A stretch of 64,000 bases of DNA. Source: Heptranchias perlo. Taxonomy: Eukaryota. The stretch covers positions 180,358,001-180,422,000 of the forward strand of contig NC_090325.1 in NCBI RefSeq assembly GCF_035084215.1, given 5' to 3'. The translations under genes were made by a program, and so were the position numbers. Below the pieces are notes generated by a model. The model was not told the DNA's origin and did not search any database. It saw only the letters and a program-made list of their open reading frames with translations. Each line of letters begins with the position of its first letter. Position 1 is the first letter of the stretch. Of this stretch, positions 4,595 to 52,700 are shown piece after piece.

Positions 4595-5970
4595 TCAGAG
4601 AAGAATGAGGGGTGACCTGATAGAGGTCTTTCGTGCCTCTGTCACCACAAGCGCAGCTCCTTTTTTGTCCCTAATTGGTCCCATGTTTCCTTTGACTACC
4701 CTTTTACTGTTGATATGTTTACAAAAAGACTTTTGGGTTCCCTTTTACGTTAGCCGTTTATCTATTCTCATACTCTGTCTTTGCCGCGCTTACTCCCTTT
4801 TTGAGATCTCCTCTGTACTTTCTGTATTCAGCCTGGTTCTCTACTGTATTATGTACATTCATCATATGCCTCCTTTTTCTATTTCATTTTAATCTCTGTA
4901 TCTTTAGTCATCCAGGGATCTCTAGCTTTGGATACCCTTCCTTTCCCCCCTCACAGGAATGTGTCTACTCTGTACCTGAACCAACTCTTCCTTGAAGGCC
5001 TCCCATTGTTCAATTACTGTTTTGCCTACCAATTTTTGATTCCAATCCACCTGGACAAGATCCCTTTTTAACTCAATGAAATTAGTCCTCCTCCAGTTAA
5101 GCATTTTCACATTTGATTATTCCTTGTCCTTTTCCATAACTATTCTAAACCTAATTATATTATGATCACTATTCCCCAAATACTCCCCCAGCCCCACTTC
5201 ATTCCCCAGAACTAGATGCAGCACTGTTTCCTTCCTGATTGGGCTGGAAACACACTGTTTCAGAAAGTTCTCTTGAACACATTGCAGGAATTCCTCCCCC
5301 TCTTTGCCCTTTACACTGTTACTGTCCCAGTCTATATTGGGGTAATTGAAGTCCCCATTGTCACTACTCTATAGTTCTTGCACCTTTCTGTAATTTGCCT
5401 GCAATTGTTCTCCTCTATCTCCTTCCCACTATTTGGTGGCCTTTAGTATACGCCCAATGGCATAATAGCTCCTCTATTGTTCCTTCATTCTAACCAAATA
5501 GATTCTATCTTTGATCCCTCAAATACATCATCCCTTTCCAGTGCTATAATAGTTTCTTTGATCAATACTGCCGCCCCCTCTCCCCACCTTTCTTTCATGA
5601 ATACCTTGTTGCCAGGAACATTACAGATGCAGAGAAGATTTTCCCTTGTGGGAGAGTCCAAAACTAGGGTCCATAAATATAAGATAGTCACTAATAAATA
5701 TAATAAGGAATTCAGGAGAAACTGCATTACTCAGAGAGGGGTTAGAATGTGGAACTCACTACCACATGGAAAGGTTGAAGCGAATAGAAAAGATGTATTT
5801 AAGGAGAAGCCAGATAAGTACATGAGGGAGAAAGGAATAGAAGGATTTGCTGATAGGGTTAGATGAATTAAGGTGGGAGGAGGCTTGTGTGGAGCATAAA
5901 CACAGGCATAGACCAGTTGGGCCGAATGGCCTGTTTCTGTGCTGTAAATTCTATGTAATTCTATGTAATA
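4595..5970. mobile_element. CR1 fragments: a plus-strand 3' end interrupted by a minus-strand endonuclease-region fragment (~4635-5620)
   Basis: RRMRGDLIEVF at ~4600. Minus-strand peptides LNWRRTNFIELKRDL and GEGAAVLIKETI. Plus-strand 3' end with an aattctatgt tail at ~5950. Confidence 0.75.
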
Positions 5971-17325: not shown

Positions 17326-19235
17326 AGAAGATAAGAAATAGGAGCAGGATCTGCTCCACCATTCAATAAGATTATGGCTGATCTTCAACCTCAACTCCAC
17401 TTTTCTGCCCTATCCCCATATTCCTTGATTCCCTTGGTGTCCAAAAATCTATCGATCTCAATCTTGAATATACTCAATGACTGAGCATCCACAGCCCTCT
17501 GGGGTAGAGAATTCCAAAGATTCACAGCCCTCTGAGTGAAGAAATTTTTCCTCATCACAGTCCTAAATGGCCAACCCCTTATCTTGAGACTATGACCCCT
17601 AGTTCTAGACTCTTCAGCCAGGGGAAAAAGCCTCTCAGCATCTACACAATCAAGACCTCTAAGAATTTCATACATTTCAATGAGATCACCTCTTTATTCT
17701 TCTAAACTTCAGAGAATATAGGCCCATTCTAATCAAATTCTCTTCATAGGACAACCCTCTCATCCCAGGAATCAATCTAGTGAATCCTCAGTGCACCCCC
17801 TCTCAGGCAAGTATATCCTTCCTCAGGTAAGGAGAACAAAACTGTACACAGTACTCTAGGTGTGGTCTCACCAGAGCCCTATATAATTGCAGTAAGACTT
17901 TGTTACTCTTATACTCCAACCCCTTGCAATAAAGGTAACATACCATTTGCTTTCCTAATTGCTTGCTGTACCTGCATGTTAACTTTCTGTGATTCGTGTA
18001 CAAGGACACCCAAATCCATCTGACTACCAACATTTCTTAGTCTCTCACTTTTTAAAAAATATTCTGCTTTGCTATTCTTCCTGCCAAGGCAGATAAATTC
18101 ACATTTCCCCATGTTATATTTCATCTGCCACCTTCTCGCCCACTCACTTAATCTGTCTATATCTCTTTGCGAACCTCCTCACAGCTTACTTCGCCACCTA
18201 GCTTTGTATCATCAGCAAACTTAGATACATTACACTCGGTCCCCTCATCTAAGTCATTGATATATATTGTAAACAGCTGAGGCCCAAGCACTGATCCTTG
18301 CGGCACCCCATTAGTTATAATCTGCCAACCCAAAATGACCAGTTTATTCCTACTATGTGTTTTCTGTCTGTTAACCAATCCTCAATCCATGCTAATATAT
18401 TTCCCCCAATCCCATGAGCCCCAATCTTATGTAACAACCTCTTGTGTGGCACCTTATCAAATGCCTTTTGAAAATCCAAATATACTACTTCCACTGGTTT
18501 TCCCTTATCTACCCTGCTAGTTATACTCTGCCTAATCATATTATGATTTTCTAAGTGCCCTGTTACCATATCCTTAATAATAGATTCCAGCATTTTCCCT
18601 ACTACTGATGAAAGGGTAACTGGCCTATAGTTCCCTGTTTTCTCCCTCCCTCCTTTTTTGAATAGCGGGGTTACATTTGCTACCTTCCAATCCACGGGGA
18701 CTATTCTAGAATCTAGGGAACTCTGGAAGATCAAAACCAATGTATCCACTATCTCTGCAGCCACCTCTTTTAAACCCCTAGGATGTAGGCCATCAGGTCC
18801 AGGGGATTTGTCTGCTTTTAGTCCCATTAATTTCTCCAGTACTTTTTCTTTACTAATCTTAATTACTTTAAGTTCCTCACTCTCATTAGACCCTTGGGTC
18901 CCCACTATTTCTGGTATGTTTTTTCTGTCTTCCACTTTGAAGACAGATACAAAATATTTGTGTAACGTCTCTGCCATTTCCTTATTCCCCATTATAATTT
19001 CTCCTTTCTCTGCCTCTAAGGGACCCATGTTTACTTTTGCTAATTTCTTCCTTTTTACATACTTGTAGAAGCTCTTACAATATGTTACTATATTTCTTGC
19101 TGGTTTACTCTCATATTCAATTTTCTCCCTCTTTATGAATTGCTTGATCATCTTTTGCTGATTTCTAAAACCCTCCCAATCCTCAGGCTTACTATTCTTT
19201 TTGGCAACATTGTAAGCCTCTTCTTTTAATCTAAT
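17326..19235 (-). mobile_element. 5'-truncated degraded CR1 LINE (RT region)
   Basis: Motifs [42 protein letters not shown] and FADDTKL, with frameshifts. Confidence 0.92.
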
Positions 19236-45770: not shown

Positions 45771-46385
45771 TCAAATAATTTGAATTAAGTAACTTTGAAT
45801 TAAGAGTAGACCGTACACCAAGTGGATACTTTAAAAGCCTGAAATATATACTATGACAAAAGAAAGAGATTTGTACAACCGTAAGAATTTACTTCATTTC
45901 CATTCCAGAAAAGTATAAGTTTATATTGAATTTAAGTTTTGTTTCTATTTTGGAATTTGTCCAGCAAAACAATTTTGAACCAAAACATAATTTTAATAGA
46001 CATGGGCTGAAATGTTGGCTTTTGCTAGTTTAGTGAAAAAGTATACGTGAATATAAAGTTATATTTTTCACCACTTTAAACTCACACCTACTTTTTCAGT
46101 GAAATTTGCAAACAAATAAATTTCACCCCAATGGATTCGGTTGTTATAAGAACATAAGAACATAAGAAATTGGAGCAGGAGTAGGCCAATCGGCCCCTCG
46201 AGCCTGCTCCGCCATTCAATAAGATCATGGCTGATCTGATCCCAACCACAAATCTAAAGAACACAAGAAGTCGGAGCAGGACCCGGCCACATAGCCCCTG
46301 GGCCCTCTCCGCCACCCACAGGGCATTGACCGATCCGAACTCAGCTTCATGTCCAATTTCCTGCCCGCTCCCCATAACCCCTAAT

Positions 46386-47700
46386 TCACTTTACTTCTAG
46401 GAAACTGTCTATTTCTGTTTTAAATTTATCTAATGATGTAGCTTCCACAGCTTCCTGGGGCAGCAAATTCCACAGACCTACCACCCTCTGAGTGAAGAAG
46501 TTTCTCCTCATCTCAGTTTTGAAAGAGCAGCCCCTTATTCTAAGATTATGCCCCCTAGTTCTAGTTTCACCCATCTTTGGGAACATCCTTACTGCATCCA
46601 CCCGATCAAGCCCCTTCACAATCTTATATGTTTCAATAAGATCGCCTCTCATTCTTCTGAACTCCAATGAGTAGAGTCCCAATCTACTCAACCTCTCCTC
46701 ATATGTCCGCCCCCTCATCCCCGGGATTAACCGAGTGAACCTTCTTTGTACTGCCTCGAGAGCAAGTATGTCTTTTCTTAAGTATGGAGACCAAAACTGT
46801 ATGCAGTATTCTAGGTGCGGTCTCACCAATACCTTATATAACTGCAGCAATACCTCCTTGTTTTTATATTCTATCCCCCTAGCAATAAAAGCCAACATTC
46901 CGTTGGCTTTCTTGATCACCTGCTGCACCTGCATACCAACTTTTTGATTTTCTTGCACTAGGACCCCCAGATCCCTTTGTACTGCAGTACTTTCCAGTCT
47001 CTCGCCATTAAGAAAATAACTTGCTCTCTGATTTTTCCTGCCAAAGTGCATAACCTCACATTTTCCAATATTATATTGCATCTGCCAAATCTCCGCCCAC
47101 TCACCCAGCCTGTCTATATCCCCTTGCAGGTTTTTTATGTCCTCCTCACTCTCTACTTTCCCTCCCATCTTTGTATCATCTGCAAATTTTGATATGTTGC
47201 ACTCGGTCCCCTCCTCCAAATCGTTAATATAGATTGTAAAGAGTTGGGGACCCAGCACCGACCCCTGTGGAACACCACTGGTTACTGGTTGCCAGTCCGA
47301 AAATGAACCATTTATCCCAACTCTCTGCTTCCTGTTCGATAACCAATCCTCCACCCATGCCAGAATATTACCCCCAATCCCGTGATTTTTTATCTTAAGT
47401 AATAATCTTTTATGTGGCACCTTGTCGAATGCCTTCTGGAAGTCTAAATACACTATGTCCACTGGTTCCCCTTTATCCACCCTATACGTTATATCCTCAA
47501 AGAACTCAAGCAAATTTGTCAGACATGACTTCCCCTTCATAAAGCCATGCTGACTTTGTCCTATTAAATTATGCTTATCTAAATGTTCCGTTACTGTCTC
47601 CTTAATAATAGACTCCAAAATTTTACCCACCACAGATGTTAAGCTAACTGGCCTATAATTTCCAGCCTTCTGCCTACTACCCTTTTTAAATAACGGTGTT
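46386..47700 (-). CDS. CR1 ORF2 C-terminal part (reverse transcriptase)
   Basis: [27 protein letters not shown] and FADDTK; no internal stops. Confidence 0.92.
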
Positions 47701-48769
47701 ACATTAACTTATATGTCCTTGTTTTTAGTCGGATACTATCCTTGATTTCTTTACTTAGCCACGGATGGCTGTCATTTCTTTTACACCCTTTTTTCCTCAG
47801 TGGAATATATTTATTTTGAAAGTTGTAAAATAACTCCCGAAATGAACACCACTGCTCATGTACCGTCTTACCCTTTAATCTATTTTCCCAGTCCACTTTA
47901 ATCAATTCCGCTCTCATACCATCATAGTCTCCTTTATTCAAGCTCAGTACGCTTGTTTGAGAATCAACCTTCTCACCCTCTAATTGGATATGGAATTCAA
48001 CCATGTTGTGGTCGCTCGTTCCAAGGGGATCCTTAACTAGGACATTATTAATTAATCCTGACTCATTACACAGGACCAGGTCCAAGGTTGCCTGCCCCCT
48101 TGTAGGATCAGTTACATACTGCTCAAGAAATCCATCCCTGATGCACTCAATGAACTCGTCCTCAAGGCTGCTCTGCCCAATTTGATTTGTCCAGTTAATA
48201 TGATAATTAAAATCCCCCATAATTATGGCTGTTCCCTTATTACATGCCCCGACTATCTCCTGATTAATACTTCTTCCAGCAGAGTTGCAACTATTAGGAG
48301 GCCTATATACTACGCCCACTAATGTTTTTTTTCCCTTATTATTCCTTATCTCCACCCAAACTGTTTCATTATCTTGATGCTTTGTCCCAATATCATTTCT
48401 CTGTATTACAGTGATTCCTTCCTTTATTAACATAGCCACCCCACCTCCCCTTCCTTCCTGCCTGTCCTTCCTGATTGTTAAATACCCTGGCATATTTAAT
48501 TCCCAGTCGTTGTCACCCTGCAGCCATGTTTCTGTAATGGCCACAAGATCATACCCATACGTAGTTATTTGTGCCGTTAACTCGTCCATTTTATTACGAA
48601 TGCTACGTGCATTTAGATAAAGAACTTTCAAATCTGTTTTGTGACGCTTAGTTCCTGCTTTTTCCTTTTTTAACACTTTACCTATTACTCCATACCTTCT
48701 GTCCCTTCCTGTTACGCTTTCCTCTCTCTCCCTGCTCAGGTTCCCAACCCCCTGCCACTTTAGTTTAAA
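47699..48769 (-). CDS. CR1 ORF2 N-terminal part (APE endonuclease)
   Basis: YLNARSI, AITETWL, GVVYRPP, MGDFN and SDH motifs. The frame is open back to the ORF1 stop and is truncated by the deletion at ~47705. Confidence 0.88.
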   Translation of the reverse strand, partial: FKLKWQGVGNLSREREESVTGRDRRYGVIGKVLKKEKAGTKRHKTDLKVLYLNARSIRNKMDELTAQITTYGYDLVAITETWLQGDNDWELNMPGYLTIRKDRQEGRGGGVAMLIKEGITVIQRNDIGTKHQDNETVWVEIRNNKGKKTLVGVVYRPPNSCNSAGRSINQEIVGACNKGTAIIMGDFNYHINWTNQIGQSSLEDEFIECIRDGFLEQYVTDPTRGQATLDLVLCNESGLINNVLVKDPLGTSDHNMVEFHIQLEGEKVDSQTSVLSLNKGDYDGMRAELIKVDWENRLKGKTVHEQWCSFRELFYNFQNKYIPLRKKGCKRNDSHPWLSKEIKDSIRLKTRTYKLM

Positions 48770-49710
48770 CCCTCCCCAACAGCACTAGCAAACACTCCTC
48801 CTAGGACAGCAGTCCCGGCCCTGCCCAGGTGCAGACCATCCGGTTTGTACTGGTCCCACCTCCCCCAGAACCGTTTCCAGTGTCCCAGGAATTTGAATCC
48901 CTCCCCCTTGCACCATTCCTCTAGCCACGTATTCATTTGAAATATCCTCCTATTTCTACTCTGACTAGCACGTGGCACTGGCAGCAATCCTGAGATTACT
49001 ACCTTTGAGGTCCTATTTTTTAATTTACCTCCTAACTCCCTATATTCTGCTTTTAGGACCTCATCCCCTTTTTTACCTATATCGTTGGTGCCTATGTGCA
49101 CCACGACAGCTGGCTGTTCGCCCTCCCCCTCCAAAATGTTCTGTAGCCGCTCCGAGACATCCTTGATCCTTGCACCAGGGAGGCAACACACCATCCTGGA
49201 GTCTCGGTTGCGGCCGCAGAAACGCCTGTCTATTCCCCTTACAATTGAGTCCCCTATCACTATAGCTCTGCCACTCTTTTTCCTCCCAGCCTGTGCAGCA
49301 GAGCTACCCGTGGTGCCAGGAAGTTGGCTGCTGCTGCCTTCCCCTGATAAGTCATCCCCCCCAACAGCATCCAAAGTGGCATATCTGTTTGAGAGGGGGA
49401 TGGCCACAGGGGACCCCTGCACTACCTGCCTGCATCTCTTACTCTTCCTGGTGTTCACCCATTCACTTCCTGCCTGTATACCCTTTACCTGCGGTGTGAC
49501 CAACTCGCTAAACGTGCTATCCACGAGTTTCTCTGCATCGCGAATGCTCCACAGTGAGTCCACCCGCAGCTCCAGCTCCGAGATACGATCGGTCAGTAGC
49601 TGCAGGTGGACACACTTCCCGCACACATGGTCGGCAGGGACACTGGTAGTGTCCATGACTTCCCACATCTTGCAGGAGGAGCATATCACGGGTGCGAGGT
49701 CTGCTGCCAT
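48760..49710 (-). CDS. CR1 ORF1p (Cys-rich zinc finger, coiled coil, SGNH esterase)
   Basis: CSSC...CGKC, IVIGDSIVR, HIGTND and DGLHL; 316 aa intact. Confidence 0.9.
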   Translation of the reverse strand: MAADLAPVICSSCKMWEVMDTTSVPADHVCGKCVHLQLLTDRISELELRVDSLWSIRDAEKLVDSTFSELVTPQVKGIQAGSEWVNTRKSKRCRQVVQGSPVAIPLSNRYATLDAVGGDDLSGEGSSSQLPGTTGSSAAQAGRKKSGRAIVIGDSIVRGIDRRFCGRNRDSRMVCCLPGARIKDVSERLQNILEGEGEQPAVVVHIGTNDIGKKGDEVLKAEYRELGGKLKNRTSKVVISGLLPVPRASQSRNRRIFQMNTWLEEWCKGEGFKFLGHWKRFWGRWDQYKPDGLHLGRAGTAVLGGVFASAVGEGLN

Positions 49711-52700
49711 GACTTGCCTTAGCTTAGTTACCCCTTTTAAATTACGTTGAAATTAGAAAATGTTAACTATACTAGGGACCTAGGTTCACTAAAAAAAAAC
49801 CACTATCTGCTATAAAACCTGCAATATTTTGCAATCTTTAATTTGAAGCCTTGCTCTGTAAAACATTGCGTATTCTGTTCTTCTATTATCCATGTAACCT
49901 TGATGGTATGTAGTTGAGTAATTTATTATTTCAAGCTGTACATGTCTGCTTGGCTCTCATGTCATATAAACTAAATGACACATTTATATTAAATAGGTTG
50001 TGGCATAGATTGCTTCAGTGTTTCCAAATTTAGTGACAGTAAATCGCATTTGAAGAGGTATTTGGATTCTTGGGCTATGTATTTTCAGAGCTGGCTCTCA
50101 TTTCTTTTGATTTAAGACATGTATGTGATTTAGCATCTTGATATTCAATTCCTAATTTTGTATCTCTGATACTTGGATGGAAATTATGCAGCTAAACTTT
50201 GTTGTGCAAAGTAGTGCTTTTCATCTTGCTTACACTTTATAGTGTGAAGAGCTCCTTTATTCTGCAAATGAGGCCTCTCAAAGGAGTGATTAATTGTATC
50301 CATTACAACTTGAATTTAAATAGGCCTCAGAACACACAATAGTCATTTTGTTAAATGAGCACCATGCAGTAAGGTGATAAAAGATTTTCAGAAAAGCTTT
50401 ATGAATTATATGCTAAGAGGTCACATACGTAATAACAAATAAATATGGTGTCACTTTGATTTTATAATTTTAAAAGGTTCTGTACTGTTGCATCTGTGCT
50501 TATTATGTATGAATTATCCGAAATCAAAAATGTTAATTTTGAAGAGTATAAGCATTGATGCTTTTTTAAAAAAAACTTTTATTTGTGTTGTTTTCTTTTA
50601 AGAACAAAAAAACCTAATTTAAACACTGCTGGTGATATCATCAGTGCCTGGAAGAGTTACTAAAATAGATGAAATGAAAACACTGAATTAATGCACTTGT
50701 TGAAAATAATGTCATTGCAAAAACATTTCAGGCTTATGATTAGTATCTCTGCTGATAAATTATTTTTTAATCAGCATTTTCTTTTCCTATGCCCCCTTAC
50801 TATGCTATCAGCAGTCAATGTAAATGATTTGAGCAAAAGGGCATGATTTTAAAGTTGATAATTCTTTATAACCTGTTTAACTTTTCTTAATTTTAAGGTG
50901 CGGTTAAAATAACTAAATGAGTACATTTTGAAGAATTCTGTTGCTGCACAATCAAGTTAAGAAGTAGTTTAGTCCTGGTCAGACTTGACACAAGTGACTT
51001 GAACAAAATGGAACATTTTTAAGTGTCGACAGAGACCTGGAAGCAGCTTATAGATCTGTTGGTCAGAAATGGGCATGGTCTGGGTGAAGAAGAGAAAGAT
51101 GAAACAAAATAAAAACATTGATTGAAGCTAGTTAGCAAATTGATTGCTCTTCTATTTTACTTTACTAGAAATTTATGATGGGGGGGTTGAGGAAGGTGGT
51201 ATCATCTGGGGGTGCAGAGGGCATAGGAGGTTCTGCACCAGTTGAAGAAACTACCCGAGGTAGCTGGGTCTACTGCAACTGATTTACTTTTCACTTGGAA
51301 TTACATTCATTTTTGTGTCTGTATATTCCATCAATTTCACTTAAACCTTAAACATTTAGACTGCAGTTCATCCTCCCTATATAACATAGGAACAGGGGTA
51401 GGCCATTCAGCCCCTCGTGCCTGCTCTGCCATTTGATAAGATCATGGCTGATCTGTGATCTAACTCCATATTCCTGCCTTTGGCCCATATCCCTTAACAC
51501 CTTTGGTTGCTAAAAAGCTATCTGTCTCAGATTTAAATTTAGCAATTGAGCTAGTATCAATTGCCGTTTGCGGAAGAGAGTTCCAAACTTCTGCCACCCT
51601 TTGTGTGTATTAATGTTTTCTAACCTCGCTCCTGAAAGGTCTGGCTCTAATTTTTAGACTGTGCCCCCTACTCCTAAAATCCCCAACCAGCGGAAATAGT
51701 TTCTCTCTATCCACCCTATCTGTTCCCCTTAATATCTTATAAACTTCGATCAGATCACCCCTTAACCTTCTAAACTCTAGAGAATACAACCCCAATTTGT
51801 ATAATCTCTCCTTGTAACTTAACCCTTGAGGTCCGGGTATCATTCTAGTAAACCTATGCTGCACTCCCTCCAAGGCCAATATGTCCTACCGAAGGTGCGG
51901 TGCCCAGAACTGCTCACAGTACTCCTTTACATTCAGATTAAGATAAGATGATCTTCTTGCTTTGTTGCTCAAGCTGTAAAGCCTCTTCCAATTCTCTTCC
52001 CAAGTCCTTTTATAATGACCAATGTAGAGTTGATCGCACATTGCCACATTCTCTGTCAGCTGTGTAGTGAAATCATGCACACCCAGCATTTTGATTGTTA
52101 GTTAAGTTCTGTAAACTAATGCTGTTCACTCGTTTCAGAAAGAGGAAAATCATAATTTGGCTAATAGTTCTCACCTGGATTTGAAGCTTGTACAATTCAG
52201 AAGAAAAGCTTTCGCTGTAATAGTTTATTAGTGGGAAAGTGGAGTTGAGGCCGAAGATCAGCCATGATTTTATTGAATGGCGGAGCAGGCTCGAGGGGCC
52301 GTATGGCCTACTCCTGCTCCTATTTCTTATGTTATTAGAGAAAAGGAAAATGCTCGAAGTACCTGGTATTGGATAAAATAGGACTAAGCACTTGACCACT
52401 AGAGCATTATAATCAGTTTGGGAATTGTTAAAAAAAATTCACTGCTTGTTTTATCATCACCTTGAGGAGAAAAAAAATCAAACATTTGGCTTTCTAGGCT
52501 TAATTACGTAGCTTAGAGTTATGGAAACGTGTCGAGGGTACCGTCTGATCTGAAGAGGTTGGATATGTGATCCATTTAGAGGTTGCCAGTCTGCCCTGGT
52601 CTTGATCCTATCCCAAATCCCTGGATGGGTGCCTGTGCCAATTATGGTACTTGCTGGGCAATTGCCCAATGGGAGTGCCAGTAATTTTGGAGTGTCATCT

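Follow-up and report, generated by a model that had tools for sequence, protein, structure and literature searches.

The second open reading frame (ORF2) of the CR1 retrotransposon described here is, with a probability of roughly 0.83, expressed through programmed −1 frameshifting of ribosomes, which would yield a fusion of ORF1 and ORF2. This reading, drawn from sequence comparison, builds on the phase of a slippery heptamer at the very end of ORF1, the −1 register of ORF2, an open linker between heptamer and endonuclease, and the conservation of heptamer, ORF1 stop codon and a short G-run downstream, all of which can be observed directly. The route of ORF2 translation is settled for few LINEs; in their available text, reviews name reinitiation as the route of L1 and SART1, and are silent on CR1.

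The CR1 element of Heptranchias perlo

The window, a stretch of 64,000 nucleotides from Heptranchias perlo, contains a CR1 LINE which extends on the minus strand from about 49850 to 46146 and displays an intact ORF1/ORF2 junction; all features described below lie on the same strand. ORF1 (49710-48760) encodes 316 amino acids with an N-terminal CX2CX16CX2C motif and a C-terminal SGNH esterase domain (PF13472, E 2.5e-13), and terminates with the sequence GEGLN. ORF2, which matches PF03372, PF14529 and PF00078, is found in two parts. The 5' half (47702..48784), an open frame of 361 codons from stop to stop, encodes the APE endonuclease, with the PF03372 match beginning at APE motif I (48619-48599), and the 3' half (46386..47708) encodes the reverse transcriptase (PF00078, E 5.5e-32). 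The two halves meet at a joint where an internal deletion has broken the frame (47699..47708), on either side of which residues 13-331 and 506-958 of a homologous protein (P0314) match in different frames. About 174 codons (~520 nt) of ORF2 are missing at this joint near 47705 and the frame is broken, so that the copy is non-autonomous; outside the joint its frames stay open. At the 3' end (46146..46168), the sequence shows an 8-nt unit repeated about three times, not followed by poly(A), which we take to be a CR1-type tail.

Among the matches listed, the nearest named ORF1 proteins are those of sharks and rays, the best one originating from Pristiophorus (76%). In a tree of the ORF1 esterase, calculated by a quick method from 93 rows, the window element is likewise placed among proteins of sharks and rays, separate from a clade here labeled L2-like, a term of our own that is also used for loci of this type. 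An esterase is described as the ORF1 type in vertebrate CR1 and L2 elements (PMC13343379). By sequence, the window element is a CR1-group LINE with an esterase ORF1, and an ordinary, defective copy. Further 5'-truncated or decayed LINE pieces are present in the window (17351-19235, 4646-5622, 51386-51924, 52255-52337 and others); they are related to this ORF2 or to its 3' end, and none of them has an ORF1 match. A shark-type CR1 ORF1 with 62% identity (P0006) is filed in NCBI as an SGNH hydrolase of Pseudomonas aeruginosa on a 4-kb contig, an entry that likely represents host contamination of that assembly.

The ORF1/ORF2 junction

ORF1 ends with GGT TTA AAC TAA. The slippery heptamer U_UUA_AAC (48763..48769) is positioned in the zero-frame phase X_XXY_YYZ and is directly abutted by the ORF1 stop codon UAA (48760..48762). 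The −1 frame is closed upstream by a TAG (48785..48787) five codons before the TTT, which caps the overlap of ORF1 and ORF2 at five codons before the heptamer. From the shift site onwards, an AUG-free linker starting with LKWQG (48620..48763) stays open up to and through APE motif I, YLNARSI (48599..48619), and the first AUG of the ORF2 frame (48587..48589) is located too late to include this motif. These features, together with a GUG at 48676 in the ORF2 frame, had been described in an earlier note from the letters of the window, and every coordinate given there holds.

In a single window, the heptamer motif is weak evidence. The two strands of the window together contain 34 copies of TTTAAAC, three of them directly before a stop, and any X_XXY_YYZ precedes 56 of 6678 stop triplets (0.8%); TTTAAACTA is found twice, with 1.05 occurrences expected. 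The weight of the argument lies in the conservation of the junction in relatives.

Within the contigs of four sequencing runs (6319, 5761, 13 and 228 contigs), no indel is reported between 48450 and 48936. None of 40 listed substitutions falls into 48727-48798; a further 82 were counted. As the listed substitutions are part of the total, an AUG might, with a small probability, be present in the majority of the family. In three of the four runs read depth is highest at the junction, which is not counted as evidence, since summed contig depth cannot rank parts of a gene. A mutation private to this copy as the origin of the −1 register is ruled out by the absence of indels in combination with the conservation described below.

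Conservation of the junction in related elements

A metagenome scan with the ORF1 alignment yielded 52 loci, 31 of which match the esterase C-terminus. Nine of these stop short of the junction, three are L2-like and do not carry the motif, and 19 possess a CR1-type junction, giving 20 junctions with that of the window. (Alignment A1 had no match in viral contigs, and a plasmid search had none either; two short matches in genome contigs and one in another search were not used.) The junctions fall into about six lineage groups: the window, a bird group whose protein cluster holds a hoatzin entry, another group of amniote-like type, and three that branch apart from named vertebrate proteins in the ORF1 tree and might, as a guess, derive from invertebrates. 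Between the groups compared, the esterases are only 23-40% identical.

The heptamer U_UUA_AAC is exact in 17 of the 20 junctions, and the stop codon directly follows in 17 of 20 as well. In the remaining three, the heptamer is replaced by G_UUA_AAC, U_UUA_AAU and U_AUA_AAC; a GUU as first triplet is tolerated in equine arteritis virus (PMC3542737). The anchor of each junction was the best heptamer match lying up to 40 nt from where ORF1 was expected to end, and an independent plain walk in the ORF1 frame arrives at this stop, too, in 15 of 20 cases. The leucine codon is UUA and the asparagine codon AAC in 19 of 20 junctions each. Since both codons are fixed despite an esterase identity of 23-40%, the constraint acts on the bases.

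APE motif I was found in 14 loci, 12 of them with the motif in the −1 register and two in +1; of the six junctions where it was not found, four are too short and two decayed. In ten of the 12 loci no stop codon interrupts the stretch between junction and motif I. The length of this linker ranges from 36 to 93 codons and the frame is nevertheless kept, which indicates that reading of the linker begins at about the junction. The earlier note had proposed a −1 frameshift and had named a lack of conservation of the heptamer or of the −1 register in active copies as an observation that would speak against it; both are kept across CR1 lineages. Judged by this comparison, the recoding-type signal at the CR1 junction is real and deeply conserved.

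The note had also called ORF2 AUG-less, which is true of this copy and of three other loci but not of all CR1s: four of the ten open linkers, including that of the window, are free of AUG, and six contain one. The five long ORF2 homologues detected all begin 28-93 residues ahead of motif I, with no common position, at starts set by gene callers, which force such a start. The GUG at 48676, suggested as a separate start, was rejected, as the linkers differ in sequence and length and share no common position.

The principal alternative is termination-reinitiation, by which ribosomes would restart a few bases past the ORF1 stop, at an AUG or any other codon, to produce a separate ORF2p, the conserved block then being a termination or tethering signal. 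Such a route is described for SART1 and L1 (PMC5972666, PMC5009743), and a restart beside the stop that does not depend on an AUG would keep the linker open too. The third codon of the −1 frame is AUG in three loci (L009, L014, L016) and GUG in another three (L006, L008, L012); however, in the other 14 of 20 it is UCG, GCA, GCG, UGG, GAC, GAA or UCC, and no start position is common to the linkers. For a stop-start arrangement of the SART1 type, an AUG at the ORF1 stop is absent in the window and located 2 nt past the stop in three of 20 loci. A zero-frame AUG directly follows the ORF1 stop in two bird-type loci, L008 (3942-3950), where another stop follows (stop-start-stop), and L012.

Evidence for a restart is also provided by two L2-like loci, L037 (near 740) and L041 (near 4180), which carry no heptamer and in which an AUG placed 5 nt ahead of the stop of ORF1 opens the +1 frame in a stop-start arrangement. 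Esterase LINEs thus appear to have two solutions or more. In the CR1-type junctions, restart would leave unexplained why the ORF1 end follows a rule X_XXA_AAC and why, as outlined in the next section, its bases seem to switch jointly among three heptamers. For this reason reinitiation is considered unlikely, even if cases mixed with frameshifting are included, and as the sole route it is rather more so.

A combination of both routes would have frameshifting as the ancestral mode and some subfamilies, such as the bird-type, restarting also or mainly at an AUG just past the stop. This would fit the AUG 2 nt past the stop in three of eight bird-type loci and further linker AUGs in L003, L007 and L010, but the AUG-bearing loci keep heptamer and G-run unchanged and have close relatives without the AUG, which makes such a mixture quite improbable.

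C-termini of ORF1 proteins

A first protein search revealed that 85 of 95 proteins reaching the ORF1 end, among 120 matches listed, finish with Leu-Asn. A second profile was built without the last residues of ORF1 to avoid bias. The best 150 representatives at 50% identity comprise 109 which end within 25 residues past the esterase core, nine which run on and 32 which fall short. The 109 ends are LN (64), GN (11), KN (2) and others (32), so that LN, GN and KN account for 77, compared to 7.5% (90/1199) heptamer-encodable dipeptides just upstream. Five ends with asparagine deviate from the heptamer rule (SN in three, FN and EN).

LN, GN and KN fit the heptamers U_UUA_AAC, G_GGA_AAC and A_AAA_AAC, the latter two being deduced from protein only; DNA of the GN and KN lineages was not found in viral contigs. 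The residue in front points in the same direction: Gln, Glu, Lys, Met and Trp, which lack codons with U as last base, stand before LN in one of 36 distinct tails and before GN in five of seven (Fisher p 1.3e-4 for 44 distinct tails, with independence overstated because the GN rows belong to one clade). Several LN rows share one tail. GN, KN and LN ends are united in one clade (SH-aLRT 97; quick tree of 93 rows), and other CR1 lineages seem to have exchanged the heptamer for a different slippery one. In another esterase clade (P0227, P0229, P0254, P0256, P0210, P0228, P0234, P0247), KN or FL/FF/FQ sits near the usual end, a few residues before the stop, and possibly marks internal A_AAA_AAC or U_UUU_UUA/C shift sites.

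Alternatively, the block could be kept for another reason, with the slippery pattern being incidental, if the ORF1p C-terminus required x-Asn or if the RNA contained a packaging or stability site. Asparagine is indeed the last residue in 82 of the 109 representatives, and no structure is found downstream. On the other hand, the codon choice is fixed as well (UUA, AAC), the distance between esterase core and ORF1 end varies by 14 residues, and ORF2 of AUG-free copies would still need a start. Of all explanations considered, this one is given the least credence.

A candidate stimulator downstream of the heptamer

In the window, a run of five G (48748..48752) occupies positions +11 to +15 past the heptamer, separated by a 10-nt spacer, and represents a candidate unstructured stimulator. 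G is found at these five positions in 18, 17, 16, 16 and 17 of 18 loci, respectively. Six or seven variable bases precede the run, and within it G is fixed even where it forms the third base of a −1 frame codon. Five predicted proteins running from ORF1 into the −1 frame, probably mutated copies, read FKL-x-x-x-G at this site. Fixed spacing with a free spacer has the look of a frameshift stimulator, and we infer that the G-run could act as one.

A G-rich stimulator had been proposed in the earlier note in the form of a hairpin or a G-quadruplex. What is conserved is the single G-run; neither structure is. In the window, the sequence after the heptamer folds no better than shuffled sequences (z −0.96 to +0.76), and the window's four tracts of at least three G do not add up to a three-tier quadruplex pattern when loops of up to 12 are allowed. 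This pattern is present in none of the 20 loci and a two-tier pattern in seven; six loci of the groups apart from vertebrate proteins contain a single G-tract. No conserved hairpin was found in the other loci, whose z-scores are mostly near zero (L003 and L004 left out), the exceptions L029 (z −2.6 at 60 nt) and L014 (z −3.0 at 150 nt) being unshared. No consensus base pair can be detected across ten aligned junctions, and no long-range partner of the G-run is common to the loci, the positions of the best duplex differing between them. A search of Rfam matched no frameshift family and gave three weak miRNA matches outside the element.

Comparison with known recoding signals

The usual eukaryotic −1 signal includes an RNA structure 5-9 nt downstream (PMC3542737). 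At the CR1 site, no stem-loop or pseudoknot was found at this distance by folding tools that do not predict pseudoknots, and the site is therefore not classed as a canonical structured −1 signal. With retroviral and LTR gag-pol and with coronavirus ORF1a/1b, where the heptamer is also U_UUA_AAC, it shares a zero-frame X_XXY_YYZ that ends a structural ORF and an enzyme ORF in the −1 frame (PMC3542737). In contrast to these signals, it lacks the downstream structure and an Rfam match and resides in a non-LTR element.

A short single-stranded motif at a fixed distance is known from PRRSV, where CCCANCUCC, bound by nsp1beta and a poly(C)-binding protein, lies 11 nt 3' to the site of the shift, and from Semliki Forest virus, for whose unstructured 3' stimulator pairing with rRNA has been proposed (PMC5009743). 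The G-run of CR1 begins where the PRRSV motif lies; the likeness is one of spacing only, since the CR1 run is G-rich instead of C-rich and has no known binding factor.

Among LINEs, TRE5-A and TRE3-A of Dictyostelium are of the APE type, and a −1 frameshift is needed for their ORF2 according to a review legend (PMC5911963). Although they belong to the L1 clade, reside in another host and have no esterase ORF1, they are the nearest precedent found for frameshifting in CR1. L1 and SART1 also carry two ORFs on one RNA, with ORF2 produced at low level downstream of ORF1. L1, however, has a 63-nt spacer and an AUG, and SART1 a UAAUG overlap (PMC5972666), whereas the frames of the window element overlap at the heptamer with no AUG near the stop.

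A report of frameshifting in CR1 was not found in the literature searched; CR1 descriptions of 1997-2001 and Repbase notes, which were outside reach, may hold a proposal of an overlap or shift. In their available text, PMC5006619, PMC4255032, PMC11203168 and PMC13405545 do not report it, and the word frameshift is absent from the available main text of PMC13343379, PMC8665684, PMC3708506, PMC2734521 and PMC3905857. The term CR1 does not occur in the first 300,000 characters of PMC5009743.

Proposed mechanism of ORF2 translation

On the preferred reading of −1 frameshifting, most ribosomes would terminate at the UAA, setting ORF1p free. A minority, whose tRNA-Leu and tRNA-Asn sit on UUA AAC, would slip back to UUU AAA and continue with CUA AAG UGG, creating the junction GEGLN-LKWQG. 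The product would be a polyprotein of esterase, endonuclease and reverse transcriptase at a low ratio to ORF1p, comparable to Gag and Gag-Pol. The shift is likely aided by the adjacent stop codon and by the G-run 11 bases downstream. More tentatively, a slow stop codon and a single-stranded G-run at the mRNA entry site might together cause the pause, and the run might either be bound by a protein or pair with rRNA.

Natural full-length ORF1-ORF2 fusions were also searched for, and only three longer proteins were found, one of which (P0121) reaches into the endonuclease. They were rejected as proof of a fusion and are interpreted as mutated copies in which the register is visible.

Implications for CR1 elements

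If frameshifting is confirmed, the CR1 reverse transcriptase would be made tethered to ORF1p, at a fixed ratio of ORF1p to ORF2p, and CR1 would depart from the restart route that has been described for L1 and other LINEs under study. The annotation of intact CR1 ORF2, for which no start codon would be needed, would change, as would the constructs used in CR1 assays. The CR1 signal is about 25 nt long, and if the G-run is its stimulator it would be one more among few structure-free cases. The chances are about even for the wider proposal that esterase-type CR1s across animals make a Gag-Pol-like fusion via a signal devoid of structure and composed of heptamer, stop, 7 nt and GGGGG, with rRNA or a host protein recognizing the G-run at the mRNA entry site. 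Elements of the CR1 group are reported to account for 22-34% of the genomes of sharks and rays (PMC13343379), and such a signal would constitute an undescribed type of stimulator in a retroelement that ranks among the most abundant of vertebrates.
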